A stretch of DNA of 55,739 nt from Pyrinomonadaceae bacterium (lineage in GTDB: Bacteria > Acidobacteriota > Blastocatellia > Pyrinomonadales > Pyrinomonadaceae), in contig JBBJMB010000001.1 in the NCBI GenBank assembly GCA_037719755.1, positions 1 to 55,739 of the forward strand, written 5' to 3'. Position 1 is the first letter of the stretch, and the number at the start of each line of letters is the position of its first letter. A program made the translations under genes and the position numbers. A model generated the notes under the pieces. The model ran no database searches, had not been told where the DNA came from, and saw only the letters and a program-made list of their open reading frames with translations. Of this stretch, positions 5,712 to 51,039 are shown one piece after another.

Positions 5712-6840
5712 TTATTCAATTGCTACTTTCAACACGCCGGACATCAATCGCCTTTCGGCCCGGCCGTCACTCGCGACGATGATTAGCACGCCCCGCTCAA
5801 CCGTGAAGCGGCGCACTTCGCTCATCGCACGCTCGATTCTCTCACCATCTCGCATCTCAATCACCAAGCGCACGCCGATCACAGGAGTCTGAACTTTGGC
5901 AGTGGCGGACACAGTTGGAGGAGCCGGCGGCGGCTCGCAGAGCATCCACCCCCGGCCGCGATGTTTTCGCAGTTGTTCTCGGGCCATCAGGCGTGGTGGC
6001 CGGCGGCAATCTGCGACGCGCGGAGGAGGAGCGTGCGCGCGGCAAATTGCTGCGCGCTGTGGAAGCCGCGGGCGCGGCGGCGCGGCGGGCGGCGTTGCCC
6101 GCGCCGGCGCTTTCGTAGTGCTAGACGAGCCCGCAGGCGAGGCGGTGCCCACCGCCAGGCCCCCTTCGTTCAAGGGCGCGGCGGCGGCGGCTGTGGTGTT
6201 TTCCGGAGCAGCTTTGGGAGGTTCAGGGTCTTCTATTCTCGCGCCAACGGAATTGACGCGCCTGGTGCCGGGACGCAAATCCGGCGCAGCAACGTTCGTC
6301 GCAGCTTTGTCTTCTTCACCTCCGGAAGTGGCGCGCGGAGCAGCGGCCGCGATAAACGGTCCCTCGAAGCTGACGCGGTAACGCGCCGTCGCGTCGCCCG
6401 CCGCGCGCCCCCACGCGAAGCACAATCGCTTCTCTTCGTCGCAAGAAAACGGACTTCGACACTTTGCTCGCGTCGTCGACGGAAGAAAGAGCGAACAGAT
6501 TCACCTTCACGAGCGGCCGCAAACCGGTGGCAACAAACAAATCAACATCTCCGTTGAGATGCGAGCCTTCGACGTTGACAATCAAATCGCCGGGGCCGGC
6601 CGAGAAAGCGTAGTAGTGCCTCGTCAAACGCGAGTCGCCGATATCAAGCGGCGCGATCAGGCCCACCGCTTCGTAAGAAGCGAGGGGCGTCGGCGCGGAG
6701 ATGTCAGTCGATTGGGCGCGCGGTGTACCCGCACACACTAAGAGGACGAGCGCCGCAAAAAGCGCTCTCCCCGGCACCTCGCGCTTTAATCGTTGCCCTT
6801 GTTTTTCCGACAAGCTCATGAGGGGACTAAGGCAAAACAA
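5712..6840 (-). CDS. Secreted hypothetical protein (PPC-like N-terminal domain, Ala/Pro-rich linker, beta-rich C-terminal domain); frameshift near 6400
   Basis: ORFs 6316..6840 and 5712..6425 join as ...EAIVLRV / WGRAAGDATARYRVSFEGPF. Signal peptide ALFAALVLLVCAGTPRAQS. YYAFSAGPGDLIVNVEGSHLNGDVDLFV resembles a pre-peptidase C-terminal fold. The low-complexity middle may hide further frame errors. Confidence 0.5.
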
Positions 6841-6893: not shown

Positions 6894-9006
6894 TCAGATA
6901 TGGCGCGGCAACCCAAAGAGTGGTTTTCTTCCAAATTCGATTGAACGGCCGAAACAGTTGATAAAATCTTCGATTCGGAAAGCGGACACGACGTGGGCGG
7001 CGCGCACGCCGGGCGGAATAAGTTTGCGCCAGCGCCCCGCATCGAACCAGCTTTCAAATTGCCGCCAGCGCTGATGAACGCAAGCGGCGATGTCGGCCTC
7101 GGAAAAGCTCAATTGCGCAACCGGTCGCACGACGTTGATGGTCAACGACAGCTCATCGCATTGTTCAATTGAAAAGTCGCCGGATTTTTCCAACAAGTCT
7201 CCCAGCACCAATCCGTAAGCGTACCCGGCGCAATGCAGAAGAATCGCTTGCTGCGCGACGTGCGGCTGCTCCGCGGTCTCATGCGCCGCGCCGACGTCTT
7301 CCGCGCTTGGCGGCGAAGCCCCGATCAACATGATGGGCAGCGCGTTTCCTTCAATTGGCAGGCCGAGCTCCAACGCCAAAGCCCTCACCAGCGCGGGCCG
7401 CAGAGGTCGCGCGCTGGCTCGCCAACGCGGTTTCACGGTAGCCGCGTTGCCGCCCATTGGAGCGACGAAAAGTTTTCTTCCCACACTGCGCTTGGCGCGT
7501 TGCGTTTGTCCGCCGAAAGTAAACGTCGCTCCGGCGGGCAGCCTGTGTTCCAGGTAGCCGAGCCGGCGTCCAGTCATCTCGTCAACGATCTCAATCGTTT
7601 CGCCGTCGCCGCCGATGTTGGAGTAAATTTCTCGTCGCTCGTTTAGTTCTTCCCATTTCACTCCGGGCTTCAAGAGAGGTGCGCGCGAAAGCGCGAAATA
7701 GTTTTCCGCTAACAAGCGCTCGATGATCTGATCATACTGCTGTTTGGGTAAAAGCGGCTCGCCTTGCGGCGAATGAAAAAGTTCGTAGGCATGATCGGGG
7801 TCGATTTCCCCGCGGCGCGCCTGCTTGACGTAAGAGAAAAGCTGCTGCGCGACCACCGAAGGGCGAAACAAAGCGTCGCCGCTTGTTGGCAAACTTGCCA
7901 GTCCCCGCGCACATTTAAGGAGCACGCGGAAAAGCGCGTGTTCGCGATCATCGCGATAAAAGCAAACAACTCGTGTGCGGCGCGTGCGTCGATTGCCGCG
8001 CCCCGTGCGCTGCAAAAAAGAAGCGACATCGTTGGGCGGACCGATCAATAAAATCAAGTCGACGTCGCCGATGTCAATGCCCAGCTCAAGCGTTGAAGTC
8101 GCCAAGCAGAGAGCCGCGTCAAGCTTGGTAAATTTATCTTCGACGGCGTGTCGCGTGCGCGCCGCGAGGCTCGCGTGGTGTGCGTAAACGCGGTCGCCGA
8201 AAGGCGTGGATTGAGCAGCGCTTGAGCGAGCGATTCACACTGGGTTTTGCTCTGACAAAAGCCAGCACTTTCCTTGTGCCGCGCGACGCGAGCCGCGCGA
8301 ACAATTCGCGCAGCGACGCCGGCCCGTCGAAGGCCAGCATTTCAGCTTCAATCTCGCGCTGCCCCGGGCTTTCAAGTAAAACCGGCTCGGCGAAGTAGCG
8401 CGCCGCGACGATCGCGGGCTGCTCAATCGTCGCGGAAAGAGCGCAAAACTGCACTCCCGCGTCAAGCGCATCGCCTCGCTCGTGCGCGAACCGTCTGAGG
8501 CGGCGCAGGCGACTGAGTAACACACGCAGTTGATCGCCGCGCGCCGTATCTTCGTACAAATGCAATTCATCCACGATGACGGCGCGCACGTCTTTTAAGA
8601 GACGCGGACGGTTAGCCAGCAAGGAATCCAACGATTCAGGCGTGGTCAGCAAAACATCGGGCGGGCGGTGCGGTTTGAGGGCGGGTTCGTCGCTTGTTTT
8701 GATGCCCAACGTCAAAGCGAGTTTGGCAAGCGGCTCTTCCAATCTGCGCGCCAGGTCGCGCGTCAAAGCGCGCGTCGGCACAATGAACAAAGTTTGCAGC
8801 CCCGCTCTGCGCCCGGCGCGAAATCGTTTTTGCAACTGCCTTTCGAGCAGCGGAGCGAGCGCCGCCTCCGTCTTTCCGCTGGCCGTCGCCGAAACAAGCA
8901 TGCAATTACGGCCCGCCAGCAACGGCCCAATTGCTTTCGCCTGAATGTCCGTGAGACGCCCGAAGCGAGCCAGCAAAGCATCCCACGTATGCGGCAGCAG
9001 GTTCAC
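6894..9006 (-). CDS. Lhr-like (BrxHI-type) superfamily-2 DEAD/DEAH helicase; two apparent frameshifts at 8197..8250
   Basis: ORF 8134..9006 carries motif I SATASGKT and motif II DELH. ORF 6894..8105 carries ATSTLELGIDIGDVD and motif VI QRTGRGNRR plus a long Lhr-type C-terminal region. The 6894 frame is open upstream and reads GDRVYAHHASLAARTRHAVEDKFTKLDAALCLATSTLELGIDIG. A third frame reads TQCESLAQALLNPRL between the two. Confidence 0.8.
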
Positions 9007-9031
9007 GGTAGAGCCTCGAAAGGATAAAGGC

Positions 9032-9156
9032 GGAAGGACATTTGGAAGGATGAAGGCGGAAGGATGAAAATCAAGGCCTCAAGAGCTTTAATCAAATTTT
9101 TAATCCTGAGCTTTCATCCTTCCGCCTTCCGCCTTCATCCTTCCAAATGTCCTTCC
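9032..9156. repeat. Heptamer-built palindromic element (GGCGGAA/GGATGAA units) between the second NTPase gene and the helicase gene
   Basis: Left arm starting at 9032 is GGAAGGACATTTGGAAGGATGAAGGCGGAAGGATGAAAA. The reverse complement of the right arm (ending at 9156) is GGAAGGACATTTGGAAGGATGAAGGCGGAAGGCGGAAGGATGAAAG. The arms are identical apart from one extra GGCGGAA unit in the right arm and one base at the inner (loop) end, separated by an AT-rich loop. Confidence 0.9.
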
Positions 9157-9159
9157 AGT

Positions 9160-10620
9160 CTAGCGTCCGAGCAAAGCGCGGCGCAGTTCACTGACGGCTT
9201 CGGCGGCGGTGTAATCGGGGTGCGCGTAACAGCGGTCGTAAATTTCCACGGCGAGGCGAATCGTTTGACGCAAGTTGAGCAAGTTGCTGTCCAGACAATC
9301 GAGCAATCCTTGCGACACATCCAAGTAGCGATGCGCGTTGTCGTAACTGTAGGCTTGGCGATGCAGCACGTAAAGACGCGCCATCAGATCATCGAGCGCG
9401 GCCGCCGAAAGATATTTGCTCAAAGATAAAATCTGTTCTTCGTCTAACCAGCGACGGTAATCAAACGTGCTGGCGGAAGGCGTGACCGCGAAAAGCACCA
9501 GCAACTGACTGCGTTCTTTTAAGCGAAAAGGATGCGGCCGGTATTGATGTTCAAGATGCTCCTGCTGCACGCGACAGTCGGGGCGCGCGGCGAGGGCGGT
9601 GTAGATCAAGCCTTTAAAAAAATTGTCGGCGCGTTCTTGACCGCGTTGCGTGAGCAAGCTGTAATGCTCGGATTCATCAATGAAGACGGCCAGTCCCGCG
9701 TATCCGGCGCGTTTCGCGAGCCAGCCCCAGCCGTTCAGCAGATAGCAGTATTGGTCGGCGGCCGTCGTCATCTGCGAAAGCGTCGGAATGGGCGTTTCTT
9801 TGCTGCGCAGGGCGACCGCGTCGCGCACCTGTTTGATGATCACCTTTTCGCCTGCCATCCAATCAAGCAAGAGCGTCAAGGCTTCGTCCTGACGCTCGCG
9901 CATCAGCGAGTAGTTGTAAAGCGCGGAGCTGAAAAATGTGCCGCGCAAATCTTCCACAAGCTCGGCGTAGAGCTTCGGCTGCGTCACGATGCGCTCGAGC
10001 AGCGGCGTGAGCGAGCCGGCCGCATCGGGCGCCTCCGGGTAGCGCAGCGAGCGCATCAGCGAATTGTAAATGCGTTGCGGACGATTGGGCGGAACTTCGC
10101 GCGTATCCAAGCTCGTCGTGGCGACGATGAAATTATGCGCCAGGGCTTCTTGTGCGGCGAACTCGAAGAAATGGCTTTTGCCCGCGCCGTATTCGCCGAG
10201 CACAACGCGCACGTCGCCGCCGTCACGCTCCACGTTGGCGATCGCCGTTTGCAGGCTCGCGCGTTCGCTCTCCAAGCCCACGCTTAACTCGCGTATGCGT
10301 TTGGCCGGCACCACGCCGTAGCGCAAAGCCTCTATGGTGTGCCGCGCTTCGATTCTTTTGACGTCTTCGGCTGTGCGCGGCGCGGCGATAATTTGTTTGG
10401 CAGACTGGAAATGGCTTGCCAAATCAATTGACGCGGCCGCTGAAGTCGCTAGGGTGGAAAGCATGTTGGTTTGGACGACGGCGCGAATGCCGTTATCAAA
10501 GCGCACGGCCGCCTCGCGCGCGGCGTTGCGCAGTTCAACGATTTGCCCGCGCCCGAACAGAGGATGGCTGACGACATCTCCGGTCATGATTTCAGTATTC
10601 GCCGACCTCGCTGCGTCCAA
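9160..10620 (-). CDS. BrxD-like (DUF2791-type) P-loop NTPase, paralog 2, with N-terminal Tudor/SH3-like module
   Basis: Walker A VVLGEYGAGKSHF, Walker B YAGLAVFIDESE, and N-terminal IEALRYGVVPAKRIRELSVG. The likely start is ATG at 10587 (MTGDVVSHPLFGRGQIV...), 4 nt after the upstream stop, rather than the TTG at 10620. Confidence 0.65.
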   Translation of the reverse strand: MDAARSANTEIMTGDVVSHPLFGRGQIVELRNAAREAAVRFDNGIRAVVQTNMLSTLATSAAASIDLASHFQSAKQIIAAPRTAEDVKRIEARHTIEALRYGVVPAKRIRELSVGLESERASLQTAIANVERDGGDVRVVLGEYGAGKSHFFEFAAQEALAHNFIVATTSLDTREVPPNRPQRIYNSLMRSLRYPEAPDAAGSLTPLLERIVTQPKLYAELVEDLRGTFFSSALYNYSLMRERQDEALTLLLDWMAGEKVIIKQVRDAVALRSKETPIPTLSQMTTAADQYCYLLNGWGWLAKRAGYAGLAVFIDESEHYSLLTQRGQERADNFFKGLIYTALAARPDCRVQQEHLEHQYRPHPFRLKERSQLLVLFAVTPSASTFDYRRWLDEEQILSLSKYLSAAALDDLMARLYVLHRQAYSYDNAHRYLDVSQGLLDCLDSNLLNLRQTIRLAVEIYDRCYAHPDYTAAEAVSELRRALLGR

Positions 10621-11875
10621 GCTGTTCGGTCACGTTGCGCACCACGCCTTGCACGTTTTCGACTTCGTAAAGTCGTTCGCCGTCGATGCGCTGCTCGGTC
10701 AAAATGTCGATCAGCGATTTGACGAAGTGGCGGCGATGGCTGGTGGAAAGCAATGAGGAACAGCTTTCGGCCAAGCGCGCGATGTTTTCATGCTGCGTTT
10801 CGCGCGTGAGTTTCAAATCGTAGGCGTGCTCGAACACGTCCAACAGCTTTTCACCGATCATACGCAACAATTCTTCGCCGGGGTAATCAAGTTGATCCAG
10901 ACTGATTTGCACGCTGTAAGGATTTTTCCGCGAGAACTTCACTTTCGAGCTGATGCGCTGGCTGAGGGCCTCGTATTGCGGCGCGATATTGGTGACAAAG
11001 TATGGCGGAACGGCGTAAACGAAAAGCGACGACGGCAAGCTCTCGCCCGCGCAACGGTCGATCACTTCGCGTAAATTATCGCAGGCGACGCGCTCCGTGC
11101 GCGAAGAGCCGATGCTCACCATGCGGTCGCCTTCGTCAAACAAAAGCACAAGCCCGGCGTAACCGAATTCGTGAATCAACTGCGCCAGCGAGCGCAACAT
11201 TTTGAAGGCGATTGAGCGGTCAGGCTTTTCGGTAATGCTGAACTCGCGCACTTCTTTCAAGTTGACGGACTCGCCGCGCAGCCACGCTCCCAAAAGCCTT
11301 TTCTTCGTTTCATTTTCTTCGGCGACGGCTTGCAAATAAAAGTAAACGGCGTGGCGAAACGAAGGGCTTTCGACCTTGAAGCGCAAAATCGTTTCCAGCC
11401 ACAGCTTGGCGCGCAGATCCAATCCCATGGGGGTCAACGCTTGTTCGACGCCGAGCGTGCGCAGCGTGTGGAAGAAATGATTTTCGAGGAAAGCCTCTAT
11501 GCCTTGCGGATCTTCCACCCCCGGATCTGCTTCGTGAAAGATAAGATTGTTGACAACTGATTGATAAACCTTCAGTTGATTATCGTACGGGCATTCTTTC
11601 GGACTGAGCTCCGTGCGGCTGACCACGTAGCCGTTCTCCCAAGCTTTGTCACGCAGGCGGTAAAGGAAATGCGATTTGCCGCTGCCGTATTCGCCGACCA
11701 CCAACTTGAAACTCGAACCGCCGTCGCGCAAGTAACCGCGCAGGTACTCTTCTTCGAGCGTGCCGAGCAGCGAATCAATGCCGACCGAATAAGCCTCCAA
11801 GCCGCGCGTCGGCGGAATGCCCGATTCGCCTAATTTGCGAACAATGTGCTGCGCCTCGATTTGCGTGACCGTCAT
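10592..11875 (-). CDS. BrxD-like (DUF2791-type) P-loop NTPase, paralog 1
   Basis: Walker A LVVGEYGSGKSHF, Walker B YAGLVLLFDEGD, and N-terminal IVRKLGESGIPPTRGLEAYSVG. The architecture is colinear with the downstream paralog. ATG lies 23 nt after the upstream stop. Confidence 0.65.
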   Translation of the reverse strand: MTVTQIEAQHIVRKLGESGIPPTRGLEAYSVGIDSLLGTLEEEYLRGYLRDGGSSFKLVVGEYGSGKSHFLYRLRDKAWENGYVVSRTELSPKECPYDNQLKVYQSVVNNLIFHEADPGVEDPQGIEAFLENHFFHTLRTLGVEQALTPMGLDLRAKLWLETILRFKVESPSFRHAVYFYLQAVAEENETKKRLLGAWLRGESVNLKEVREFSITEKPDRSIAFKMLRSLAQLIHEFGYAGLVLLFDEGDRMVSIGSSRTERVACDNLREVIDRCAGESLPSSLFVYAVPPYFVTNIAPQYEALSQRISSKVKFSRKNPYSVQISLDQLDYPGEELLRMIGEKLLDVFEHAYDLKLTRETQHENIARLAESCSSLLSTSHRRHFVKSLIDILTEQRIDGERLYEVENVQGVVRNVTEQLGRSEVGEY

Positions 11876-11898
11876 AGCTCACATCTCAATTCGCTGAT

Positions 11899-12885
11899 TT
11901 ACTTCTCGGAAAAGTAAAGATCTTTGATGAACTGGCCGGCGGTCGCATCCGTCGCCAGGAACATCGCGCGCGCCGTGTCGCTGCCGACGTCAATGGTGGC
12001 CGTGCCCAGGTTAAGGCGCAGGTTGTTGTAAGTGAGTTTGCCCGAACGGCGCAGTTGCAGCATGTCGTAGGCGAAGTGCGTCTTTGGATAATCTTTGAAG
12101 CTGTTTTTGGAAGGCGTTTTGCGAAACGAGAGCGGTTGGCGCACCAGCACCAGCTCGCGGTAACAATCGACGATGTTCATGCGCGCTCCCATTTGTTTCC
12201 CCGCGAGTTTAAGCGTGCGCTCGTAAGCTTCATAAATCTCTTTGATTAATTCGTTGTAATCAACTTTTCTCTCGCACGTCTCGCGCCGCGCGCGCTCGTA
12301 AGCGCCCACGACTTGCGGCACATCAAGCTTGATCTTTTTGTCGATTGCGGATTGACGCGAAAAGCTAATTTCGACTTGTTTGCGGCGCAAGTCCGGTTTG
12401 ATGACGAACAAGTCCGCGACCAGGGCGGTCGGCTCGCCCGCGAGCTTGACGCCCCGCTCTTTAAAGGCCGCGCGCAAATCGCGGGCGAAAGTGAATTCCA
12501 GCTCGGAAAGATGCGCGTCGGCCAGGGTTTGCAGTTGCGCGAAAAGCTTTTGGGAGTTTTTCGGCAACTCCAGCTCCGCCGCTCGGTTGCCGAGCGCCAC
12601 GCCCGCTTCGTACAACGCGACGGCGCTGCTGTGCGGGTCTTTGAGGGCGCGCAACGCTTGCTCGATGGGGCCGATGACATCGCGCCGCATCTTCACTTCG
12701 CTCGCCAACTGTTGGCGCACTTCGCTCAAACTCATTGACAATTCGTCCGCGTTCGGCACGTCTTCCGCCGCCAAACGAGCGTGGCTTTGGTCACTCATCA
12801 GTTGGTTTTCTCCCGATTGTTTGATTATTTCGCGATCGACTTCGCCGCAAGTTACCGCCAAGCGCAGCCGCGCTTCGGAAAGCAT
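11899..12885 (-). CDS. Hypothetical protein, first gene of the NTPase-helicase cassette
   Basis: Long ORF with coding-like composition and no motif I can recognise. The internal ATG at 12798 (MSDQSHARL...) is preceded by GGGAGA about 10 nt upstream and is the likelier start (~299 aa). Confidence 0.6.
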   Translation of the reverse strand: MLSEARLRLAVTCGEVDREIIKQSGENQLMSDQSHARLAAEDVPNADELSMSLSEVRQQLASEVKMRRDVIGPIEQALRALKDPHSSAVALYEAGVALGNRAAELELPKNSQKLFAQLQTLADAHLSELEFTFARDLRAAFKERGVKLAGEPTALVADLFVIKPDLRRKQVEISFSRQSAIDKKIKLDVPQVVGAYERARRETCERKVDYNELIKEIYEAYERTLKLAGKQMGARMNIVDCYRELVLVRQPLSFRKTPSKNSFKDYPKTHFAYDMLQLRRSGKLTYNNLRLNLGTATIDVGSDTARAMFLATDATAGQFIKDLYFSEK

Positions 12886-12957: not shown

Positions 12958-13616
12958 CTACTGCTTTTGGTTTTGCACCCATTCTTCGAAAGCAAGCAGG
13001 GTTTCGTACTGATCTTGTTGCTGACTGTGTACGAGAAATTCTGTGAGCGTGCTGCCGGTCAACAAAGGCAATGCTTGGCTTGCTTGTGCCGTCAGATACT
13101 GATTTTGTTGTAAATGATAGATGGTGAGCGTTTGTCCATCGTAGCGCCAGATCTCAGGCACTCCAAGCGCAGCATAAATCGGGAATTTGGACAGCGACTG
13201 ATGGTGCAGATCAACCTCAACGACGATGTCCGGCGGCGGATCAGTGCTGAAATCGATTTCTTCTTCCGGCCAACGGAGTCTGCGCGCTGAACATAGAAAC
13301 AAGCGTCGGGCTCAGCCCCTTTGTTCTGACGCTGCTTCTTCATCGTCGCCGAGCCAAAAGAAAGAACTTTGATGCGCAGGCGAATGCTGAGCAGGCTCAC
13401 CATGCTATTGATGAGGTAAGAATATTTTTCGTGCTCGGTCGAAAGTATCATGATCTGCAACGCTCCTTGATCGTAGCTGATACGCAAGCCCTTTGCTGCT
13501 CCGACTTCTTCGAGCAACTCTTCGTATTCTTGCCAACTCTTGTCGTGCAAAATCAGTGTGCTGTCGACTGGTAGCTGTTCAATTACATCGTGATAACTCA
13601 CCGCTTGAACGCTCAT
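12958..13616 (-). CDS. Uma2 family (DUF820) PD-(D/E)xK-like endonuclease; one frameshift near 13290
   Basis: ORFs 13092..13616 and 12958..13302 join as ...GAEPDACFYV / ...RRLRWPEEEIDFSTDPPPDIVVEVDLHHQSLSKFPIYAALGVPEIWRYD, a typical Uma2 core. Visibly more AT-rich than its neighbours. Confidence 0.7.
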
Positions 13617-13777
13617 CGCTTATCTCCCTCAACCGCGCGCTCGGTTACGAAACTATTTCGCAAATTAACATTCCTGCTGTTTGCGCCACTCGACTTTGTG
13701 GTCCGGACCGTATCACAAAATCCCTTGAGGCTCGACAGTCAAACGAGTCATGCGAACTAAACGACAGCCAAAAACAT

Positions 13778-13818
13778 AATAAAAATGCGGCTCATCCATA
13801 AACTTTAGGATAAGCCGC
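13778..13818 (-). terminator. Rho-independent terminator after tRNA-Leu
   Basis: On the minus strand: GCGGCUUAUCC-loop-GGAUGAGCCGC (11-bp stem with one G-U pair) followed by AUUUUUAUU. Confidence 0.75.
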
Positions 13819-13884
13819 ACTTGAATTTTCGTGCCGCAAGGGACTTGCCTTTCGCTAATTCCCTAATGAGCCCGGCAATATTTT

Positions 13885-13969
13885 TGGTGGGGATGGAGAG
13901 ACTCGAACTCTCAAGGGTTGCCCCACATGCACCTCAAACATGCGCGTATACCAATTCCGCCACATCCCC
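13885..13969 (-). tRNA. tRNA-Leu (anticodon GAG), class II with long variable arm, CCA encoded
   Basis: Folded by hand. Acceptor GGGGATG/CATCCCC, discriminator A, CCA. D-arm GGCGGAATTGGTATACGCGC closely matches E. coli tRNA-Leu. Anticodon stem CATGT/GCATG with loop TTGAGGT. Variable arm GGGGCAACCCT. T-arm GAGAG-TTCGAGT-CTCTC. Confidence 0.9.
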
Positions 13970-14063
13970 CGCGAAAATCACTTTATCAAACAGCCATCGT
14001 TTTTTCTAGCTCCAAGTTGCCTTCGTTTTTGCCGGTAATCGACGGCTCCGCTCTTAAAAAATC

Positions 14064-16536: not shown

Positions 16537-16554
16537 GTCTTTTTGAAGAGGGGG

Positions 16555-16650
16555 TTGGAAGTCAGAACGATGAACGATGAAGTCAAAGCCATGAACTGCT
16601 CATTTTTGTCTTTACTTCTATCGTTCATCGTTCTGACTTCTGACTTCCAA
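16555..16650. repeat. Heptamer-built palindromic element (GAACGAT / AGAAGTC units) between gap and pgk
   Basis: Left arm TTGGAAGTCAGAACGATGAACGATGAAGT (16555..16583). The reverse complement of the right arm (16614..16650) is TTGGAAGTCAGAAGTCAGAACGATGAACGATAGAAGT, so it has one extra AGAAGTC unit. It abuts the gap stop codon. Confidence 0.9.
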
Positions 16651-17635
16651 TCAGATTCCTTTTTGCGCGATGTACTTGATCAGGTCGCGCACGCGGCACG
16701 AATAGCCCCACTCGTTGTCGTACCACGACAGCACTTTCACCAAGCGGCCGCCGATGACCTTGGTGTATTCGGCGTCGACAATCGAGGAGTTTGGGTTTTT
16801 GCGATAATCCACGGAAACCAGCGGTTCTTCCGAAAAGGCGAGGATGCCGCGCAACTCCTCGTGGGCCGCGTCTTTCAAAGTGCGGTTGACTTCCTCCGTA
16901 GAGGTTTCCTTTTCGACCTGCATGACCACATCCACGAGAGAAACGTTCGGCGTGGGCACGCGCACGCTGATGCCGTCGAACTTGCCTTTAAGCTCCGGCA
17001 ACACAAGCGCCAGCCTCGCGGCGCCCGTCGAAGTGGGAATCATGGAGAGCGGCGGCGCGGGCGCGACGCAAATCTTTGTGCGGCAACCAAGCAACTGCTG
17101 ATCGTTTGTGTACGAGTGGAGGCGGGGTGATGCCGAACTTTCGTGAATCACTTTCGCAATCGGGGCCAAACAGTTGGTGGTAAGAAGCGTTGGAGAGAAT
17201 GTGGTGGGCGGCCGCATCGTACTTGTCTTCGTTGACGCCGAGCACAATGGTAATGTCTTCGTTTTTCGCCGGCGACGAGATGATAACTTTCTTAACGGTG
17301 CCGCGCAGGTGTTTGCGCGCGTCTTCGGCGTTGGTGAAGCGGCCCGTAGATTCGATCACCACTTCGGCGCCCACCGATTCCCAGTTGATGGCGGCCGGAT
17401 CTTTTTCTTTGAAAACCTGAAACTCATCACGACCCACCTTAATGGTGTTTTCCGTCGCCGTCACTTCTTCTTCCAAATTGCCGAGCAGCGAATCGTATTT
17501 GAGCAGATGCGAGAGCGTTTTGGTGTCGGTCAAATCATTGACCGCGACGAAATCGAGCTCCGCATCGCCGATCGCCGTGCGCAGCACGTTGCGGCCGATG
17601 CGCCCGAACCCATTGATGCCTACTTTGACTGCCAT
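16651..17635 (-). CDS. gap: Type I glyceraldehyde-3-phosphate dehydrogenase; several clustered frame disruptions at about 17040..17200
   Basis: The N-terminal ORF carries INGFGRIGR. The C-terminal ORF carries (S)CTTNCLAPIAKVIHE, HSYTNDQQLL, IPTSTGAA and WYDNEWGYS. KFGI and PHKDLRRARAAAL are readable only in another frame. Confidence 0.85.
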
Positions 17636-18034: not shown

Positions 18035-20168
18035 ATGCATTCCGGTCGAAGTTTTCGTGGAATCCGCACGCTCGGCGCGCTGTTGCTCATCATCTCCATA
18101 GTTCCAGTTCCAATTATCCAAGCGCAAACCACCACCACGCCTCCGGCCAAAGGCCGGCCAGGCAAGACGCGACGCGGCCGCCGGGCGCACCCAGGCCGTC
18201 GCCTCAAGCGCCTCCGAGTTCCGCCACCGAAGGGCCCGAACCTTCGCCGCGCGCGCCAGCGGGCCCGCCTGCTCCCGGTGTGGCTTCCCCGCTTAACCCG
18301 CAGCCTGCGACGCCGGGGCAGAGCCAGCAACAGCCGCAGCCTTCGTCGGGCGCGCCGCCCAATCAATCGCCAGTGAATCCCCAAATCGACCAGCCGCTTG
18401 ACATGCAGCAGTTCACGCAAGACCCGACCATCACGTCGCTTGAAGCTCGACCCGTGCCGCCGCCTCCTTCGCTCGTGCGCCTTGGCGTTTCGAGCGACAA
18501 TCAGTTGTCGCTCACTTTGAACGAGGCCATCCGGCTCGCCCTGGAGAACAACAATGATATCGAAGTCGCACGCAATGACGTGCGCTTCGCCGAGACCGTG
18601 CTCACCTCACTGCAGGGCTTCTACGACCCGGTTTTCGTTTTGACGCCGCAAGTCACGCGCTCGTCACGGCCCGTGACGTCTGTGCTCTCCGGCGGCAACC
18701 AATCGGGCACGGTGTCTCAAACAGACTTCGAGCTGAACCCGGGATTGAGCAAAAACTTTGAGATCGGCGGCGGTCAATACCAGTTTTTCTACAACAATTT
18801 GCGGCAGAACACGACCTCTACATTTAGCAATTTGAACCCGATTTACTCTTCGAGCCTTGGCGTGACCTTTACGCAGCCGCTTTGGCGCGACCGTTCAATT
18901 GACCGCCAGCGCCGCGAGATTCGCGTGCAGCGCAAGCGCATAGAGCAATCGGATGCCGATTTTCGCCGCTTGACGACGGAAACCATTGCGCGCGTGCAGG
19001 CGGCTTACTGGGATTTGGTTTTCGCACTGCGTGAGCAGCAAAACCGTGGTTCGGGTTTAGAGCTGGTGCGCCAGCAGTTTCGTTTAACAGAGGCGCGCGT
19101 CGCAGCCGGAGCGGCGCTCCGCTTGAGCGCGCAGAGGTGCAAACGGAGCTGGCCAGCCGCGAATCGGATTTGCTGTCCGCGACGCGGCAGGTGGCTATCG
19201 CCGAGAACACGCTGAAACAATTAATTCTGCGCGATCCGCTGGCGAAAGAATGGTCCGCGATTGTGACGCCGACGGATGAACCCACCTTCGATACGGCGCC
19301 CGTTAATCTCGAAGGCGCGCTGGTCGAAGCGCGCACCAACCGCCAGGAATTGCGCCGCCTCCGCCTCCAAAATGAAATCACCGATATAGACATTAATTAC
19401 TACGGCAACCAAACGAAGCCGCGGATAGACATTCAGTCAACTCTTTCGACGAACGGCCTGGCCGGCACAGCGGTCGCTGCGAGCGGCATCGGCGCCGGCG
19501 GCGTCGTCACCACGCCGGGCGGCGGCGTCACACCGATTGACGGCCAAGTGCCGATCATCATCGGCGACCCGACCATCAACGCTAATGCCTTTTTGCTGCA
19601 ACAAATCAACCAATTGCGGGCTTTGCAGGGACTTGAGACGGCCCTTATTCCCGGCGTCACGCCCGAGGCCGGCAATACGATTCCGCCGAATTTGATTGGC
19701 AGCTACGGCCGCTCGACGCGCAATCTGTTCGGCTTCGACACCGGCACCATCGCCGTTGGCGTGACGATTCAAATTCCGCTGCGTAACCGCACAGCGGAAG
19801 CGAATCTGGCCGGCGCACGCATCCAGAAAACGCAATTGGAAGCCAACACACGCGCGCAAGAGCAAACGGTTGAGGTCGAAGTGAGAAACGCCGCGCAGTC
19901 TGTGGAGACCGCGCGGCGCGTGGTGCTTTCGGCGCGCTCGCAGCGGCAAAACGCGGAGCTGCAATTGGCCGGCGAGCGCCGTCTGTTCCAGGTCGGGCGC
20001 TCGACGACGTTTCTCGTCTTTCAGCGCGAAAATCAATTAACGCAGTCGCGCGCGCTCGAACTGAGGGCGCAAACCGACTACAACAAAGCGCTCGCCGAAC
20101 TGCAACGCGTGACCTCGACCACACTGCGACTTAACAATGTGGTGGTCGAAACGCTGACTTCTAAATAA
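18035..20168 (+). CDS. TolC-family outer membrane efflux protein with Pro/Gln-rich N-terminal linker; at least 2 frameshifts (about 18150..18300 and about 19130..19215)
   Basis: ATG at 18035 gives the signal peptide MHSGRSFRGIRTLGALLLIISIVPVPIIQAQ. ORFs 18280..19215 and 19137..20168 carry two TolC-like repeats (LTLNEAIRLALENNNDIEVAR...; ...DYNKALAELQRVTSTTL). Confidence 0.75.
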
Positions 20169-29536: not shown

Positions 29537-32500
29537 ATGCGTGTTTTAACCAAAGGAATTTGGCTGCTTTGTAGCGCTGCACTGGGCCTGTATTTCGCGG
29601 CCAGCCAAGCAGCGTTCACACCGCAAGCTGCGCTTGCAGGTGCAGCGACCGCGAAGAAGAAAGAGGCGTTGGCATCGCCAAAACTGCCGCTGGATTTTGT
29701 AGAGAATCGCGGACAGTGGAACAACAAGGCGCGGTTCATGGCGCGCAGAGGGTTGATGTCGGCCAGCTTTGAACGAGATGCCATCGAACTCTACGAATCG
29801 GAGAGCGAAAATCTCTCTTAAAGCTGACCTTTGAAAACGCTTCGCCGCATGCTTCGTTGATCAGCGAAGAGAAGCGCAGCAATTATTACAACTTCTTCAT
29901 CGGTAACGACCCGGCGCAGTGGCGATCTCAAGTTGCCGCCTACACAAGCCTGCTCTATCGAAATCTTTACCCCGGCATTGATGTGCGTGTGCGCGAAGAA
30001 GAAGCCGGGCGATTAGAATACGACTTGCTGCTCGCTCCGGGCGCGAATCTCAAGAGCGCGATTGTGCGCGCGAGCGGAGCTCAAAAGATTGAAGTTGCCG
30101 ACGACGGCGCGTTGTTGGTGCACACGGCAAACGGAACTTTGCGCCAATCGCCGCCCGTCACGTGGGAGGTGTTGCCAAACGGCGAGCGACAGTTCGTCGA
30201 ATGTCGCTTCACAAAGATTGATGCATCGCGCTACGGCTTTGTCGCTGCGCGGCGCGATACAAGCTTGCCTTTAGTCGTCGATCCGGGTCTGGATTGGTCA
30301 ACATTTCTGGGCGGTGGCGGCGATGAAAGAGTCGAAAGAATAATTGCGACGCGCGACGGCACGGGCGACGTGATCATAATCGGTTCGACGCTTTCCGCCG
30401 ACTTCCCGGCGATGAGCGGAGGCTGGAACGCCATCGGGCAAGCGATCTACCTGACGCGCATCAACGCGACGGGCAGCGCTCTTGTCTATTCGACGCTCTT
30501 CGGCGGATCGTCCGTCAACATCCCCATGGGTCTCGCGCTCGACGCTTCGGGCGCACCCGTGATCGTCGGCGGCACGGCATCAAACGACTTTCCCGTCACG
30601 TCCGGCGCCTACGACACGACTTACAACGGGCAGGATGATGCTTTCGTCACTCGCTTTAACCAAACCGGAAGCAGTATCGTCTTTTCGACTTACCTCGGCG
30701 GCTCGCACATCAATCCGGCATTTGCCTCAGGGGGCACAGATCAGGCGTGGGGCGTCGGTTTCGACCCCACAGGCTCCATCATCGTCGCCGGATATACAAC
30801 GTCGCTCGATTTCCCGGTCATGCCGGGAGCGTATGACACAACGCCGAACACCTACACCGATGCGACCTATTCTTCGATGCAGGATGCTTTCATCTCGCGC
30901 CTTGATGCGACCGGCGCAAGGCTCACTTATTCGACTTACCTCGGCGCGCAGGGAGTGGATACCGTCGCTGATTTGGAGATAGACGGTCAAGGTGTCGTAA
31001 CTCTGGCGGGCACTACCACTCCTCTTTCGCGCGTGACATCAACGGCAACAATGTTCCGCTCGGCACGACGTTTCAACAACTTGGCGCCTACGACCGGACG
31101 CTCAACGGGCAGTCAGAGCTACATCTCGCGCTTGAAACTCGACGGCGCGGGGACGGCAGATCTTAAATACTCCACGCTGCTCGGTGGAAACGACACGGAT
31201 GAGGCGACCGCGCTGGCCGTCAATCCGAACAACCCTGAATCGTTCGTCATCGTCGGCAAAACTTTTTCGGGAGATTTCCCGACGACTCCGGGCGTCATCG
31301 AACGCACGCATTCCGCGCCGGGCGAAGTGACGAATATGTTCGTCACGCGCTTTCAATTTCCAATCGCGGGGGGCGGTTCGCTTGTCTGGTCTTCCTATTT
31401 CAACGGTCCGGGTCCGAGTTTTTCGCGCGCGGAAGATGTCGCTCGACGACACTGGCGCGCTGATCGTCGTCGGTCAAAACAATTCACTTAGTCCGCGCAC
31501 GACCGAACGCGCTTTCGACCGCACGCCGGAAACGTCCGACGCCATTCTCTTGCGTCTCAGCGCCGACGGCGCGCAACTGCTTTATTCAACTCTGCTCGGC
31601 GGCGCATCCTTCGAGGGTGAGTCGCACATGGCATACGTTGGCGGCGCGACTGTCATCGTCGCCGGACGCACCAAGTCGCCGGACTTTCCCGTCACGGCCG
31701 GCGCACTCGACACGATTTACGGAACGACCGGCGCGCCGAGCGATTTCACGATCTATGATGTGTTCGTTGCCAAGATGACGCTGCAACCGAACGAGACGGG
31801 TGACACGACGGTTGACGCGCCCGCGCTCGTCGCGCCCGCTCACGCGGCGACGTTTACCGCACCTGCTTTCATTGACTTCGATTGGTCGGACGTGTCTGAT
31901 GCGTCGGGCGTAGAGGCCTACCACATTCAAATCAGCCCGAACGCGGCGTTCGCCGATTCACGCATCGCCCGCCTTTCCGGCTGGTTCGAGAAGTGGATTC
32001 CAGTTTCGCAAGCCAGCGCCGACTTCGGCACATCGTTCGTCGGCACATTCTACTGGCGCGTGCAGACGCTCGACCGGACGCACAACCTGAGCGCATGGTC
32101 GGCCGTCCGCACTTTTACGGTCAGCACGCCGACACCGCCTGCCTCGCCGACCTTGACGACTCCGGCGAACAATGCGCAGCTTCCGCCGAGTCAAGCCATC
32201 ACGTTCGCATGGAACGCCGTGTCCGGCGCGAGCAGCTACGATATTCAGATTGACGATTCAAGCGCGTTTACTACGCCGCTGGTGGTTTCGCGCTCGGTCT
32301 CCGGGCAAACGCAAACCACACAATCTTTCGCGTCGGAGAAGAGTTACTGGTGGCGCGCGAGAGCGATCAACGGAGCGGGCGCCGGGGCATGGTCAACTGT
32401 TCGCACTTTCCAGATCAAGAAAGGCGCTTCGCTTCCACCACCGCCTGGAAACCCAACGCTCTCTACGCTGACGATCAATCCGACGACGGTGACAGGCGGC

Positions 32501-33010
32501 GCGTCCGCGCAAGCCACCGTCACGCTCACGAGCGCAGCACCGGCGAGTACAGCAATTATCGCGCTCACGAGCAGCAACTCAGCAATCGCCGCTGTGCCCG
32601 CAAGCGTCACCGTCGCTGCCGGAGCCACAAGCGCGACTTTCACAATTACGACCAATTCGGTGACCGCCGCAACATCTGTCTCTATCTCCGCTTCTTACGG
32701 CGGCATTACGAGGACAGCGCCACTTACTGTGAATCCGCAAGCGGCTCCTCCACCGCCCACGACCGATACCGTCGCTATCCAACGCGCTGATTATTCGACG
32801 GGCAACCGCCAACTGCGTGTCGAAGCGACGAGCACGAACTCCAGTGCGGTGCTGACTTGCTACGTCACTTCAACGAATCAACTCATCGGTACGCTAACCA
32901 ACAGCGGCGGCAGGTATAGCGGTCAGTTCTCTCTGACGGCTAATCCACAGAGCATCACAGTAAAGAGCAGTCTCGGCGGAAAGGCGACAAGAGCCGTGAC
33001 CATCAAGTGA
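29537..33010 (+). CDS. Large secreted SBBP (beta-propeller) repeat protein with C-terminal Ig/FN3-like domains; at least 2 frameshifts (about 29815 and about 31380..31490)
   Basis: ATG at 29537 gives the signal peptide MRVLTKGIWLLCSAALGLYFAAS. The ...DxxGxxxVxGxTxSxDFPVTxGAYDTT...DAFVTR... units recur many times. The C-terminal half is rich in Thr/Ser/Ala Ig-like repeats. The junction at 29815 is restored by adding one T to a T-run. Confidence 0.7.
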
Positions 33011-46165: not shown

Positions 46166-46325
46166 GAATTGAACACACGCAACAGTTTTCGGCAAGCAAC
46201 TCCGCCAGGGCAGAGCTTGCTCTAAAGCTATGAGGGCGCGTTTTCTTCGATCCCTTGGCGCACAGCCGCAAAGTGCGGATGAAGCGCACCCTCATATTTC
46301 CACTGATTGTTTGAGTCATTTGAGA

Positions 46326-47899
46326 ATGAGTGCTTTTCTATCGCTGACCCTTCTTTTATTTTCTCTTTTTTCCTGCGGCGGCGCGACGAATTCCAGCCCG
46401 GAAATTGCCGGCGGTTCCGCGCCGACCCTTCTCGCCGACGCCGCCCAGACGGCCAGCAGCGACGACGCTCTTGTCGCCGTCAGGCGCCTAGACCAATCAG
46501 GAATCGGCCCCGGCGATCAACTTCCCCAGTTACCGCCCGCCGAACACCTGCGCCGCGCCAGCGTGTATCTCACCAATCGCGCCTTTGATGACGCGCGGCG
46601 CCACTGGCAGGCATTGATCGCGCGATACCCGCAGGACCCCGCGGTGTCCGCGTCCCTGTTTTCGATGGGGCGTTCATACTTTCAGGAAAGAAAGTATCAA
46701 GAGGCGCTCGGCGTTTTTGAGCAATTAGGAAAGAGAGAAACGCAAAGCAAAGAGGGGCGCGACGGCTTTTATTACGTGGCGCCGACGCTGCTTCGCTTGA
46801 ATCGACCGCTTGAGGCGGCCGTACGTTACCGCGAATATATCGAGCGCTTTCCGCAAGGCGAGCGCATCGCGGACGCGCACTTGAATGTGATCGACAGCCT
46901 GCGCGAAGGCGGCGACAACCAAAACGCCATCGTCTGGGTCGAGCGCACGCGTGAACGTTTCCAGGGAACGCCGACGGCAACGAACGCTCTGTTCGCTCGC
47001 CTGCGTTTGGATATCGCGACGCAAGATTTCGCGCACGCCGCCGCGACAGCGCCGAGCTTCAACAAACCGCCATCGCCCGCGGCGCCGCGACGAATGCCTC
47101 AGAGGTCGCCTACCTGCGGGCTTACAGTTTGGAGAAAGCTGGCCGCAAACAAGAAGCGGCGACCGCTTATCTCGCCATTCCCGACGGCGCCTCTGCTTAC
47201 TACGGCGGATTAGCTACCAGGCGTCTGCTCGCGCTGTTTCCTAACAACTCACCGGCGACAACAACGCCGCGCGGCCGCGCTCTCAAAGCTTTGCAAGAAG
47301 TGCGCTCGTCTTCCCATCAATATCCGGTGCAGTACCGCGAAGCGATTCTGCGCCACGCCAGGGCACATAAAATTGATCCGCGCTTGATGCTCGCCATTAT
47401 GAAGCAGGAAAGCAACTTTAATCCGCGGGCCAAATCGCCGGCCGCCGCGCGCGGTCTGATGCAATTGACCTTCGACGCGGCGACCAAGTATGCGTCCAAG
47501 CTTAAGCTCAAAAATTTGCAAGAGGATGATCTTTATCAACCGGAAGTCTCGATTCAACTGGCGAGCGCATACCTCGCGGAGCTGGGAGCGATGTTTCCCG
47601 GGTTGCCCGAGGCCGTGGCCGCGTCCTACAACGGCGGCGAAGACAACGTCGCGCGGTGGGTCAAGCGAGCCAATCAACCGGACCCCGGCGTCTTTGCGGC
47701 CGAGGTCGGTTTTGCCGAGACCAAGGATTACGTTTACAAAGTGATGGCCAATTACAGAGCTTACTCTCAGCTCTACACCTCTGATTTGCGCCCCATTGCC
47801 GCAGACGTCACGCGCACCACGGCCTACGGCTCCGGACTAAACGAGCGGTTTTCAAAACCCGTCGCGCGCTCGCGATCGCGCAGAGGATCAACGCGGTAA
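46326..47899 (+). CDS. Lipoprotein lytic transglycosylase (TPR-like N-terminal region plus SLT domain); one frameshift at about 47040..47210
   Basis: ATG at 46326 gives MSAFLSLTLLLFSLFSCGG (lipobox). ORF 47129..47899 carries the SLT motif LMLAIMKQESNFNPRAKSPAAARGLMQL...YNGG. Confidence 0.75.
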
Positions 47900-48980: not shown

Positions 48981-51039
48981 GTGAAGATGCGCAGTTGTTT
49001 TCCGGCGACCAGACTTGCTTTCGCGATTTGCCTCGCGGCGAGTCTCGCCGCCTCATCATTTTCTCAAGCGAACCAGCTTCCCCGTATGGATCAGCGCGCC
49101 GTCGAAGTCAAAACGCTCAACACGCTTTATTCGTTTCCGGCGCCCGCGAGCAAAGAAGAATGGCTCGCCCGCTCCGAGTCACTGCGCCAACAGATTTTGG
49201 TGAGCGCCGGCCTGTGGCCGATGCCGAAAAAACAAACGCTCAACGCGCACATCTTCGGTAAAGTCGAGCGCGAGGATTATTCAGTTGAAAAAGTTTACTT
49301 CGAGAGTCTTCCGGGTTTTTATGTGACCGGGAATTTGTATCGGCCGCTCAGGAAGGCCGGTCCCTTTCCGGCCGTGCTGGTGCCGCACGGACACTGGGCC
49401 TATGGGCGGCTGGAGAACACGGACCTCAGCTCCGATCAAGGCTTGGGCATTAACCTCGCGCGCCGCGGCTTGGTGGCCTTTTCGTATGACATGGTCGGCT
49501 ACAACGACGGCGGCCACATCGACCATCATCTCAAGCAAGGCAACGGCAACCGCCGGGGAGTCTCGTCGCCGGAAAGAGAATTTGGCTTGTGGGGATTCGG
49601 AACGCTTTCTTTGCAGCTGTGGAACGGCATCCGCGCCGTAGACTTTTTGGCCTCTCTTCCCGACGTTGACCGGGACCGCCTGGGATGCACAGGGGCTTCG
49701 GAGGCGGCACGCAAACTTTTCTGTTAAGCGCCATTGACGCGCGCATTAAAGTGGCCGCCCCCGTGAATATGATTTCTCATTCGATGCAGGGCGGCTGCGC
49801 TTGCGAAAACACCGCGCATCTGCGGCTCGACACAAACAACATGGAACTAGCGGCCTTGATCGCGCCGCGCCCGTTGCTGATGGTTTCGGCCACCGGCGAT
49901 TGGACTCGCGACACGCTCAGCATAGAGCACCCGGCGATGCAAAGCATCTACAAACTGTTTGACGCTGAAGGAAAAGTGCACGCGATGCAAGTCGATGCTC
50001 CGCACAACTACAACCGGGCGAGCCGCGAAGTTGTTTACGAGTGGTTCGATCGCTGGCTGCTCGGGCGGCCGGAAAGCAACCCGACGAAAGAGCTTAACTT
50101 TACCGTCGAACCGCTGGCCAAGTTACTAATCTTTCATAACAAAGAGCTGCCCGCGGAAGCTCAAACGCAAGAGCAATTGTTCGCTTATCTCAAGGCGAGC
50201 TCCGAGGAGCAATTGCAAGCTCTCCGCCCGCGCGACCAAGAGAGCTTGCTTCGTTTCCGCGAAACGATGGGTCCTGCGCTGCGGCACTCGCTCGCGGCGG
50301 AGTACCCGCAAGGGGTGATCGCGGAACCTCGCCCTTCTTTTAAGCCGGGCGCCGCGGAAGAGTTTTTCATCGGGCGCGCGAAAAAAGGCGATCGAATTTC
50401 CGCCAAGATTTGGAGGCCACAGGGAAAAGGCAAGCCGAAGGCGGCGACCCTACTGGTGCATCCCGCAGGAGCGACCGCCTTTCAAGCGACGGGCAAAGAT
50501 TTGGTCGAGGCGCTTTTGAAAGAGAATCACGTGGTGATGACGATTGAAGCTTTTAATACGGGCTCCGCACAGGCGAACCGAGACTTGAGCAGCGCGTACT
50601 TCACCACCTACAACAGATCGGATGACGCCAACCGCGTGCAGGACATACTGACGGCGCTCGCTTACCTGAAAGAAATGAATCAGGCGACGCCTCTCAATTT
50701 GGTGGCCTGGAAGAGGCCGGACTCTGGTGCTTGCTGGCGCGCGCTCTGGCTCCGGAGCTGGCGCAAACGGCGGCTGATGTTTTCCAGTTTGATGCTCGCG
50801 AGGATGCTTCTTTTCTGCACACGCTTTACATTCCGCTGATCAAGCGAGCCGGAGATTTGAGAACGGCTCTGGCGCTGGCCCCTCCGTCGCAGTTGCTTAT
50901 TCACAACACAGGGGGAAAGTTCGATACCGAATGGGCGCGCCAAACTTACCAAATCGCGGCGGTCACAGACAGGCTCCGCATCGAAGACGGTAAACTGCCG
51001 CGATTAGAGTTAGCCCGCTGGTTGACACAGCCTCGATAA
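48981..51039 (+). CDS. Secreted alpha/beta hydrolase family protein (acetyl-xylan-esterase/dienelactone-hydrolase-like); 2 frameshifts (about 49690 and about 50705)
   Basis: ORFs 48981..49727, 49685..50839 and 50731..51039 read on from one another. The nucleophile-elbow-like GCTGASGGG spans the first junction. Has a signal peptide. Confidence 0.6.

Follow-up and report, generated by a model that had tools for sequence, protein, structure and literature searches.

A conserved four-gene ATPase-helicase cassette from Pyrinomonadaceae, probably a new relative of the Shango defence system

The anti-phage system Shango combines a TerB protein with an ATPase and a helicase, and it has been validated by experiment for Pseudomonas aeruginosa and E. 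coli (PMC10250203; 10.1101/2022.05.11.491447). In bacteriophage exclusion (BREX) systems BrxD and BrxHI form a tightly linked dyad, and a role in loading or activating BrxHI has been suggested for BrxD, an ORC/Cdc6-type AAA+ protein (PMC12839542). A third system, Hachiman (HamA-HamB), is a defence complex organised around a Ski2/Lhr-like superfamily 2 (SF2) helicase that surveys DNA (PMC12278908). Four co-directional open reading frames (ORFs) related to these systems are tightly packed on the minus strand, in the order A-B-C-D, at positions 6894-12885 of a 55,739-nucleotide stretch of a Pyrinomonadaceae genome (contig JBBJMB010000001.1), the whole of which is referred to below as the window. 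Judged from its genomic context, this cassette is probably a new relative of Shango. With a probability of about 0.6, the region is a copy of a conserved, horizontally spread four-gene operon for ATP-driven nucleic-acid surveillance (anti-phage or anti-plasmid) of the Shango/BREX type 2 (BREX-2) accessory type.

The cassette and its closest described relatives

11899..12798, minus strand: gene A, 299 aa, with an N-terminal coiled coil (residues ~17-114) followed by a beta-sheet and helical region
10592..11875, minus strand: gene B, 427 aa, BrxD/DUF2791-family ORC/Cdc6-type AAA+ ATPase with the motifs GEYGSGKSH and LLFDEGD
9160..10587, minus strand: gene C, 475 aa (486 aa from TTG 10620), BrxD-family ATPase with the motifs GEYGAGKSH and FIDESE
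10453..10581, minus strand: Tudor-like domain of C (residues ~3-45), resembling the C-terminal Tudor domain of UvrD/PcrA
9018..9156, no strand assigned: imperfect palindrome of 139 nt, filling the spacer between C and D and unique in the window
8257..9006, minus strand: first-frame segment of gene D from GTG start 9006, DEAD/DEAH motor domain 1 with SATASGKT and DELH
8208..8260, minus strand: frameshift zone of D, a middle stretch in another frame, CQSKTQCESLAQALLN
6894..8210, minus strand: C-terminal segment of D, Helicase_C (QRTGRGNRR) and a ~350-aa region without a Pfam model

Genes A and B are separated by 23 nt and genes C and D by a spacer of 153 nt. Between B and C there is a gap of 4 nt if C starts at ATG 10587, or an overlap of 29 nt if it starts at TTG 10620. 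These ORFs and spacings had been proposed in a first-pass annotation made from the sequence alone and were recovered when re-derived from the ORFs of the window; the motifs quoted there for B, C and D were all found in the window proteins. Its domain assignments, two DUF2791/BrxD-family ATPases, one Lhr/BrxHI-type SF2 helicase and one unknown protein, were borne out by profile searches. The start of A was placed at 12798 and not at the alternative 12885, as the homologues, 285-304 aa in length, span 91% of the long ORF.

The assignment of B and C to the BrxD family was examined with the Pfam model PF10923 (BrxC_BrxD, DUF2791), which matched B over its full length with an E-value of 2.3e-47 (162.3 bits) and C with an E-value of 3.3e-33 (115.6 bits), the gathering score being 22.2 bits. 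The PADLOC models gave BrxD at 7.6e-37 (125 bits) and SngB at 7.4e-28 (96 bits) for B, and BrxD at 82 bits and SngB at 4e-20 (70 bits) for C. The naming of these proteins as BrxD held at the level of the family and not at that of orthology. With the NCBIfam BrxD equivalog (NF033438) B reached 129.2 bits and C 80.8 bits, and because both miss the cut-off of 350 bits they are not BrxD orthologues; their identity to annotated BrxD proteins was at most 28%. C also contains a linker rich in Pro and Ala, and ~25 aa are inserted behind its Walker B region. In a neighbour-joining tree the C-type ATPases of all phyla formed one clade, apart from B, BrxD and SngB, whereas the B-type ATPases fell into separate clades closer to BrxD and SngB, indicating that the duplication giving B and C is ancient. 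The Walker A and B motifs were kept in both proteins in every phylum represented. The tree and the motifs together place B and C as ancient paralogues of the ORC/Cdc6-like BrxD family in which the predicted catalytic Walker motifs have been retained.

The first segment of D was matched by PF00270 with an E-value of 4.5e-32 and by the PADLOC models for BrxHI (2e-33) and SngC (8.6e-31), and the C-terminal segment by PF00271, BrxHI (5.8e-18) and SngC (4.7e-15). This C-terminal segment is the fastest-evolving part of the cassette, at 37-54% identity. The best NCBIfam models for D were TIGR04121 (ligase-associated DNA damage response DEXH helicase, 1.1e-30) and PRK13767, at 106 bits compared with a cut-off of 850 bits. 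D resembles Lhr, Lhr-core and the ligase-associated DEXH helicases in its SF2 DEAD plus Helicase_C motor and its Lhr-like motifs. The motor of Lhr is followed by WH_Lhr and DEAD_assoc, neither of which was detected in D, and the genomic partners differ. In five intact cassette helicases Pfam detected only DEAD, Helicase_C, ResIII and a weak Cas3-like_C_2, with no WH_Lhr, DEAD_assoc or nuclease domain even at E<=0.5.

No Pfam, NCBIfam or PADLOC model matched A, either as the window protein or as 43 diverse members of its family, in line with the absence of any recognised motif in the first-pass annotation. An exhaustive profile search at E<=1e-3 gave 586 representative clusters at 50% identity. 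A founds a new protein family without a model in those three databases. The A-family hidden Markov model (HMM) matched the first gene of every cassette with E-values of 1e-17 to 1e-86. When the A profile was compared with PDB sequences only coiled-coil noise was obtained. AlphaFold2 models of A had a predicted local distance difference test (pLDDT) score of 85 for the whole protein and of 93 when restricted to residues 112-299. Foldseek searches of PDB and BFVD with the full-length and C-terminal models gave nothing significant, the best E-values being 0.29 and 0.11. The weak matches were winged-helix-bearing proteins (kleisin, ORC, Cdt1); they are a lead and not a result, and from the models A probably holds a small winged-helix-like subdomain.

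The N-terminus of C carries a motif of ~45 aa, xGxxVxHPxFGxGxV...VxF, that is invariant in the C proteins of Acidobacteriota and Chloroflexota. When a profile of 11 such N-termini was searched against PDB, the top four matches were all chains of UvrD-family helicases. The first two, UvrD 7egt_B (E 9.5e-4) and 4c2t_A (E 3.3e-3), aligned at the C-terminal Tudor region, and the third and fourth had E-values of 0.58-0.61. Pfam PF21196 matched the same N-terminus at 14.2 bits (E 0.041), below its gathering score of 23.9 bits. The Tudor domain of PcrA/UvrD binds RNA polymerase (PMC5397179, PMC8318588).

The closest named stand-alone system is Shango, which had been overlooked in the first-pass annotation; its SngB and SngC models scored nearly as well on the cassette as the BrxD and BrxHI models. 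Like the cassette, Shango is a stand-alone operon without a BREX core, in which a non-enzymatic first gene is followed by a DUF2791/BrxD-family ATPase and then an Lhr/BrxHI-like DEAD/DEAH helicase, with the SngB- and SngC-type genes adjacent and A sitting at the place of the TerB gene. The order and sizes of the cassette genes match those of real Shango loci (L070, L072). The likeness to SngB and SngC is at family level only, as the cassette proteins lie in clades of their own. Shango has three genes and a single ATPase, whereas the cassette has four genes and two paralogous ATPases in all loci. The first gene of Shango encodes a TerB protein, whereas A has no TerB Pfam match, the A-family HMM misses SngA (L072), and tblastn with SngA found no match in any cassette locus. 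The cassette helicase also forms its own clade, unlike SngC, and the C protein of one subtype adds the Tudor-like domain.

BREX type 2 (Pgl) and type 6 loci contain the same two families, ATPase then helicase, as their BrxD-BrxHI pair, and the models of this pair were the top PADLOC matches to the cassette. The BREX loci also encode PglZ, PglX, BrxC/PglY and PglW, all missing from the cassette, and compared with the BREX pair the cassette has a duplicated ATPase, an added gene A and separate clades. The membership of B, C and D in the BrxD and BrxHI families would fit a BREX accessory module that has become detached from a core (PglX, PglZ, BrxC/PglY) located elsewhere in the genome, as would a locus of Aulosira (L069) in which the cassette follows immediately on PglZ, BrxD and BrxHI of a BREX-2 locus. 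That BREX-2 locus, however, already has its own BrxD and BrxHI, in clades other than those of the cassette proteins, and the cassette is therefore independent of BREX. PglZ, PglX and BrxC were absent from the whole 55.7-kb window by Pfam and PADLOC, as the first-pass annotation had stated, and from the six genes closest to the cassette on either side in 11 Blastocatellia loci, and tblastn with PglZ gave no match in 1.1 Mb of related loci. A 26.9-kb plasmid of Desulfomonile carries the cassette with no BREX gene in the 15.3 kb examined. Since B and C also fall under the BrxD equivalog cut-off, detachment from BREX is very unlikely as an explanation of the cassette.

Hachiman is a mechanistic analogue only. 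The PADLOC HamB models matched D weakly. Hachiman includes the nuclease effector HamA and lacks an AAA+ partner, whereas no nuclease is recognisable in the cassette. Another variant of the form 'X + BrxD-like + helicase' was seen on a plasmid of Deinococcus psychrotolerans (NZ_CP034187.1; L073 2993-10407 and 11827 onward). Two hypothetical proteins of 851 and 451 aa, a BrxD-like ATPase and a helicase occur there twice in tandem, with an identical helicase accession, and neither of the two upstream proteins belongs to the A family. Because such variants exist, the ATPase-helicase pair looks like a modular engine with exchangeable partners. A description of the cassette was not found in the literature on BrxD, BrxHI, DUF2791, Shango and Shango-like variants. 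No existing defence model covers all four genes, as A has no PADLOC match.

Distribution, subtypes and genomic neighbours

The cassette had been described as an orphan. It is instead a conserved four-gene unit, its A family of 586 clusters extending over at least five phyla. The order A-B-C-D was kept in ~45 Blastocatellia loci, wherever the contig was long enough, and because the order recurs in every such related locus the four-gene arrangement is far beyond chance. Close relatives of A comprise 265 clusters at 90% identity, show 60-96% identity, and all belong to the Acidobacteriota (class Blastocatellia / family Pyrinomonadaceae); a scan of one genome per GTDB species placed this close family in 59 species. 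Gene B is the best-conserved gene of the cassette, being 77-91% identical to the window copy across Blastocatellia, compared with 58-73% for A and C and 37-71% for D.

Distant A proteins, 20-28% identical, stand first in the same order of four genes in Chloroflexota and in a metagenome-assembled genome (MAG) labelled Bryobacterales (L063, L066, L067), and distant cassettes were found in Chloroflexota, Cyanobacteriota, Thermodesulfobacteriota and Bacillota. The distant A clusters are mostly metagenome proteins. A tblastn search with B located the same architecture on plasmid pDESTI.01 of Desulfomonile tiedjei DSM 6799 and on plasmid 3 of Aulosira laxa NIES-50, and the first genes on both plasmids belong to the A family with an hhalign probability of 98%. 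The C-type protein of the plasmids had 757 relatives, including proteins of Nostoc sphaeroides, Microcoleus, Pseudanabaena galeata, Egbenema bharatensis, Syntrophales and a Bacillota MAG. Two subtypes can be distinguished, one with a long C that carries the Tudor-like domain (Acidobacteriota, Chloroflexota) and one with a short C that lacks it (Cyanobacteriota, Thermodesulfobacteriota, Bacillota). All six inspected contexts of short-C relatives contained the cassette, in one case disrupted by insertions; Nostoc sphaeroides and the Bacillota and Syntrophales MAGs keep the order A-B-C-D. In Microcoleus the full cassette was present in one assembly (L079), whereas most Microcoleus matches and that in Pseudanabaena consisted of the C-type protein only. 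The short-C subtype occurred on only 2 of 72,556 plasmids, A gave no plasmid match by single-sequence tblastn, and C gave no match in 50,697 phage records.

The arrangement of A, B, C and helicase is thus kept among unrelated genomes of at least five phyla, in a patchy distribution. The cassette helicases are monophyletic with respect to BrxHI and SngC, and the protein comparisons as a whole indicate that A, B, C and D have been inherited and exchanged together across phyla.

Outside Blastocatellia the cassette was repeatedly found beside defence genes. It lies 1.5 kb from a type I CRISPR-Cas locus in L063, directly after the BREX-2 genes of Aulosira in L069, beside AbiEi/Eii on the Desulfomonile plasmid (L068), and directly before a complete type II cyclic oligonucleotide-based anti-phage signalling system (CBASS) and an SNF2/NOV_C helicase in L076. 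In L078 the neighbours are an MmeI-like restriction-modification (RM) enzyme, PIN toxins and a transposase, in L075 transposases and a CHAT-STAND protein, and in L080 toxin-antitoxin genes.

The cassette is dispensable. A clean deletion of 3.1 kb, running from B into D, distinguishes L064 and L065 from L063, with flanks at least 99.7% identical, and an independent deletion of 1.3 kb from A into B distinguishes L061 from L033. The Egbenema copy is interrupted by insertions, and the intergenic spacers of other copies have served small mobile genes as landing sites. In the MAG population labelled Bryobacterales, in which A is present on 132 contigs, an intact cassette occurs together with a B'-'D fusion (L063 6335-8470 and 11803-14926; L064; L065), and the intact and fused versions both adjoin a kdp operon and a CRISPR array whose repeats recur every ~72 bp. 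This polymorphism is a natural presence/absence case and can be used for population analyses.

Defence and genome maintenance as candidate functions

The picture in Blastocatellia is different. There housekeeping genes such as LepA, PEP carboxylase, EPSP synthase and KARI make up most of the flanks of the cassette, and defence models matched about 3-4 of 116 flanking proteins. The first-pass annotation had looked to enrichment next to known defence genes as a mark of a defence system; this was not seen in the Blastocatellia flanks, and the argument for defence therefore rests on the other phyla. Synteny of the flanks is limited to close species, and the identity of the cassette changes in step with that of its flanks. 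Because cassette divergence tracks the flanks and B remains 77-91% identical, the Blastocatellia cassette looks vertically inherited under strong purifying selection, and not subject to defence-island turnover. All of this weighs against a surveillance function in defence, and further points fall on the same side. The argument from defence neighbours comes from ~11 non-Blastocatellia loci. No effector domain (nuclease, toxin or membrane protein) was detected in the cassette proteins, and the best NCBIfam match of D and the Tudor-like domain of C are both of repair-helicase kin. The central step of the defence mechanism is in addition one that we infer, namely that B and C would assemble into an AAA+ hetero-oligomer, by which helicase D is loaded or gated on its target nucleic acid.

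These observations would also fit a genome-maintenance module, in which an Lhr-like repair helicase works with a dedicated pair of AAA+ loaders and an adaptor; its substrates would be damaged DNA, or transcription or replication complexes that have stalled. The module would be housekeeping-like in Blastocatellia and only occasionally mobile. Such a module would account for the mainly housekeeping flanks in Blastocatellia, for the very high conservation that tracks flank divergence, for the UvrD/PcrA-type Tudor-like domain on C and for the lack of a nuclease or toxin effector, and it would agree with a ligase-associated DNA damage response DEXH helicase as the top NCBIfam match of D, although this match is far under its cut-off. 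It is at odds with the patchy occurrence over at least five phyla, with a close family in only 59 GTDB species, with the plasmid-borne copies, and with the copies beside CRISPR-Cas, BREX-2, CBASS, AbiE and RM systems. Nor would a maintenance gene set be expected to show independent internal deletions and insertional disruption; the nearest characterised ATPase-helicase relatives are defence systems, and the Tudor-like domain is absent from the short-C subtype. A function in maintenance is accordingly considered unlikely. The earlier proposal of an undescribed defence candidate stands in that the cassette is undescribed in the literature and a defence role is plausible, and the alternative that it named, a module for repair or for resolving conflicts, is the main rival reading.

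For nucleic-acid surveillance in defence, a mechanism can be outlined from the domain content. The loader role of the B and C hetero-oligomer would follow that proposed for BrxD with BrxHI. Protein A, through its coiled coil and a putative winged-helix part, may sense the target together with the variable half of D at its C-terminus. In the subtype of Acidobacteriota and Chloroflexota the UvrD-like Tudor domain on C could tether the complex to RNA polymerase or to another host partner. Since no nuclease or toxin domain was detectable, interference would be mechanical, through helicase-driven disruption of the replication or transcription of the invader, or would depend on recruited host nucleases. 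Taken further, and at somewhat less than even odds, the cassette may represent a widespread immune system whose sisters are Shango and the accessory pair of BREX-2. In such a system heteromeric ORC/Cdc6-like ATPases would load an SF2 helicase onto the nucleic acid of the invader under the control of A as sensor or adaptor, one subtype would be coupled to RNA polymerase by its UvrD-type Tudor domain, and immunity would be achieved without a nuclease or toxin, by evicting or stalling the replication or transcription machinery of the phage.

The cassette is a third self-contained setting of the BrxD-BrxHI/SngB-SngC pair, after the validated defence systems BREX-2 and Shango, with a duplicated ATPase and a new partner. 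When the three settings are compared, the ATPase and helicase are the constant engine and the TerB protein, PglZ/PglW or protein A are the exchangeable parts, which makes the role of the engine testable. The possible coupling to RNA polymerase through a Tudor domain, if confirmed, would be a novelty among defence systems. The family is large, uncharacterised and broad in its phylogenetic range, and it is especially common in soil Acidobacteriota and cyanobacteria, groups barely sampled by defence screens. It is also experimentally accessible, as cultured carriers make experiments feasible: the D. tiedjei DSM 6799 plasmid, Nostoc sphaeroides, Aulosira laxa NIES-50 and probably Microcoleus and Pseudanabaena galeata. 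Loci of cultured strains are NC_018026.1 10215-15641, AP018310.1 18893-24287 and one on CP045227.1, and WP_014813311-WP_014813314 are an example of the four encoded proteins.

Integrity of the window copy and its surroundings

Gene D had been presented as a single gene of the cassette, and in the window it is not one ORF: it runs through three frames owing to two 1-nt deletions. Alignment to an intact homologue placed these in the T run at 8257-8260 and near the CC run at ~8208-8209. The middle frame reads AFCQSKTQCESLAQALLN, and the homologue consensus is AFCQRRAECEEWAYLLRG. All of the more than 40 homologues of D are single ORFs of 674-787 aa, and the reconstructed D is ~704 aa long. The split of D into two ORFs by two indels, together with the real internal deletions seen in cassettes of other genomes, could be taken to mean that the window copy is the decaying remnant of a pseudogene. 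Both indels are, however, losses of a single base at short runs (T4 and CC), and over ~2.1 kb D is otherwise without stop codons or other damage. Other genes of the window are broken likewise: the essential GAPDH gene (16540-17635) contains at least three frameshifts, and the Uma2 (12958-13616), TolC-like OEP (18280-20168) and peptidase S13 (46230-47899) genes are split. Possible split genes were also noted at 29857-33010 and 48981-50839.

Single-base losses at homopolymers are typical of unpolished long-read assemblies, and the window probably comes from such an indel-prone assembly, in which no single frameshift should be taken as the mark of a pseudogene. Because GAPDH and other genes of the window are damaged in the same manner, the frameshifts of D are read as a probable sequencing artefact. 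The gene is most likely intact in the organism, and the 'repair' of D that had been proposed before expression is needed only because the assembly is error-prone. With the split helicase as a likely artefact the window copy of the cassette is probably functional, and decay to a pseudogene appears quite improbable.

The palindrome in the spacer between C and D has arms of 37 nt that are 95% complementary (9032-9068 / 9120-9156). It is built from GGAAGGATGAAGGCGGAAGG units, noted also as GGAAGGATGAAGG(C)GGAAGG, around an AT-rich centre of 51 nt. The unit is present here in four copies and nowhere else in the window (0 expected). The palindrome probably represents either a small repeat element that inserted between C and D or a hairpin at this site; possible forms are a miniature insertion, a hairpin for transcript processing and an internal attenuator.

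In about one quarter of the Blastocatellia loci the cassette spacers hold inserted genes of 0.8-1.3 kb, mostly between C and D and sometimes between B and C. The inserts encode VapC/PIN toxins with small partners, Uma2, a DUF1016/YhcG PDDEXK nuclease, an Rpn/YhgA-like gene with DUF4351, and AAA_14-DUF4143, and one insert family without an identity is common to four loci. They are located at L007 5181-6029, L032 13921-14871, L011 3953-4790, L043 7738-8827 and 5381-6339, and L035 13860-15188, in L046 and L047, and in the C-D gaps of L042, L053, L054 and L057. Several have a low guanine-plus-cytosine (GC) content of 34-43%. These genes may be selfish insertions or optional effector modules.

Upstream of gene A the window contains a split Uma2 gene (12958-13616, Pfam) and a tRNA-Leu gene (13885-13969), and the GC content falls to 0.49 in 13001-14000, so that the tRNA, the Uma2 gene and the AT-richer stretch of the first-pass annotation are all present. 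The terminator placed there was not supported, terminator-like sites being no commoner than in shuffled sequence, and scans of the window for promoters and terminators gave nothing above shuffled controls. The tRNA-Leu gene was considered as an integration site and rejected, as no repeat of the tRNA region of at least 13 nt occurs elsewhere in the window. The earlier description of a classic accessory position after a tRNA is weak, given that no att-like repeat was found and that the Blastocatellia copies follow species divergence and have housekeeping neighbours, in positions that vary. Immediately upstream of A there is a Uma2 (PDDEXK) gene both in the window and in a Microcoleus genome (L079 7190-7849), and one was found between C and D in a Blastocatellia locus (L011 4086-4721). 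Uma2 genes are very abundant in these phyla, and their recurrence beside the cassette, although notable, may be coincidence.

A separate cluster was seen upstream of one Blastocatellia cassette (L001 1138-7515), encoding a DO-GTPase2 protein, proteins with an FGE-sulfatase domain and a Ser/Thr kinase; the cluster could constitute a conflict or signalling system of its own. Directly downstream of D, the window at 5712-6840 is high in GC and contains overlapping low-complexity ORFs rich in Ala, Arg and Pro on both strands, among which a 174-aa ORF at 6316-6840 resembles a secreted protein. The same odd repeat, LSLVTCHLSLVTCH, was present in the translated N-termini at positions 1-948 and 52032-53585 of the window, which suggests another short DNA repeat family, with GTGACA-type units, at two distant sites.

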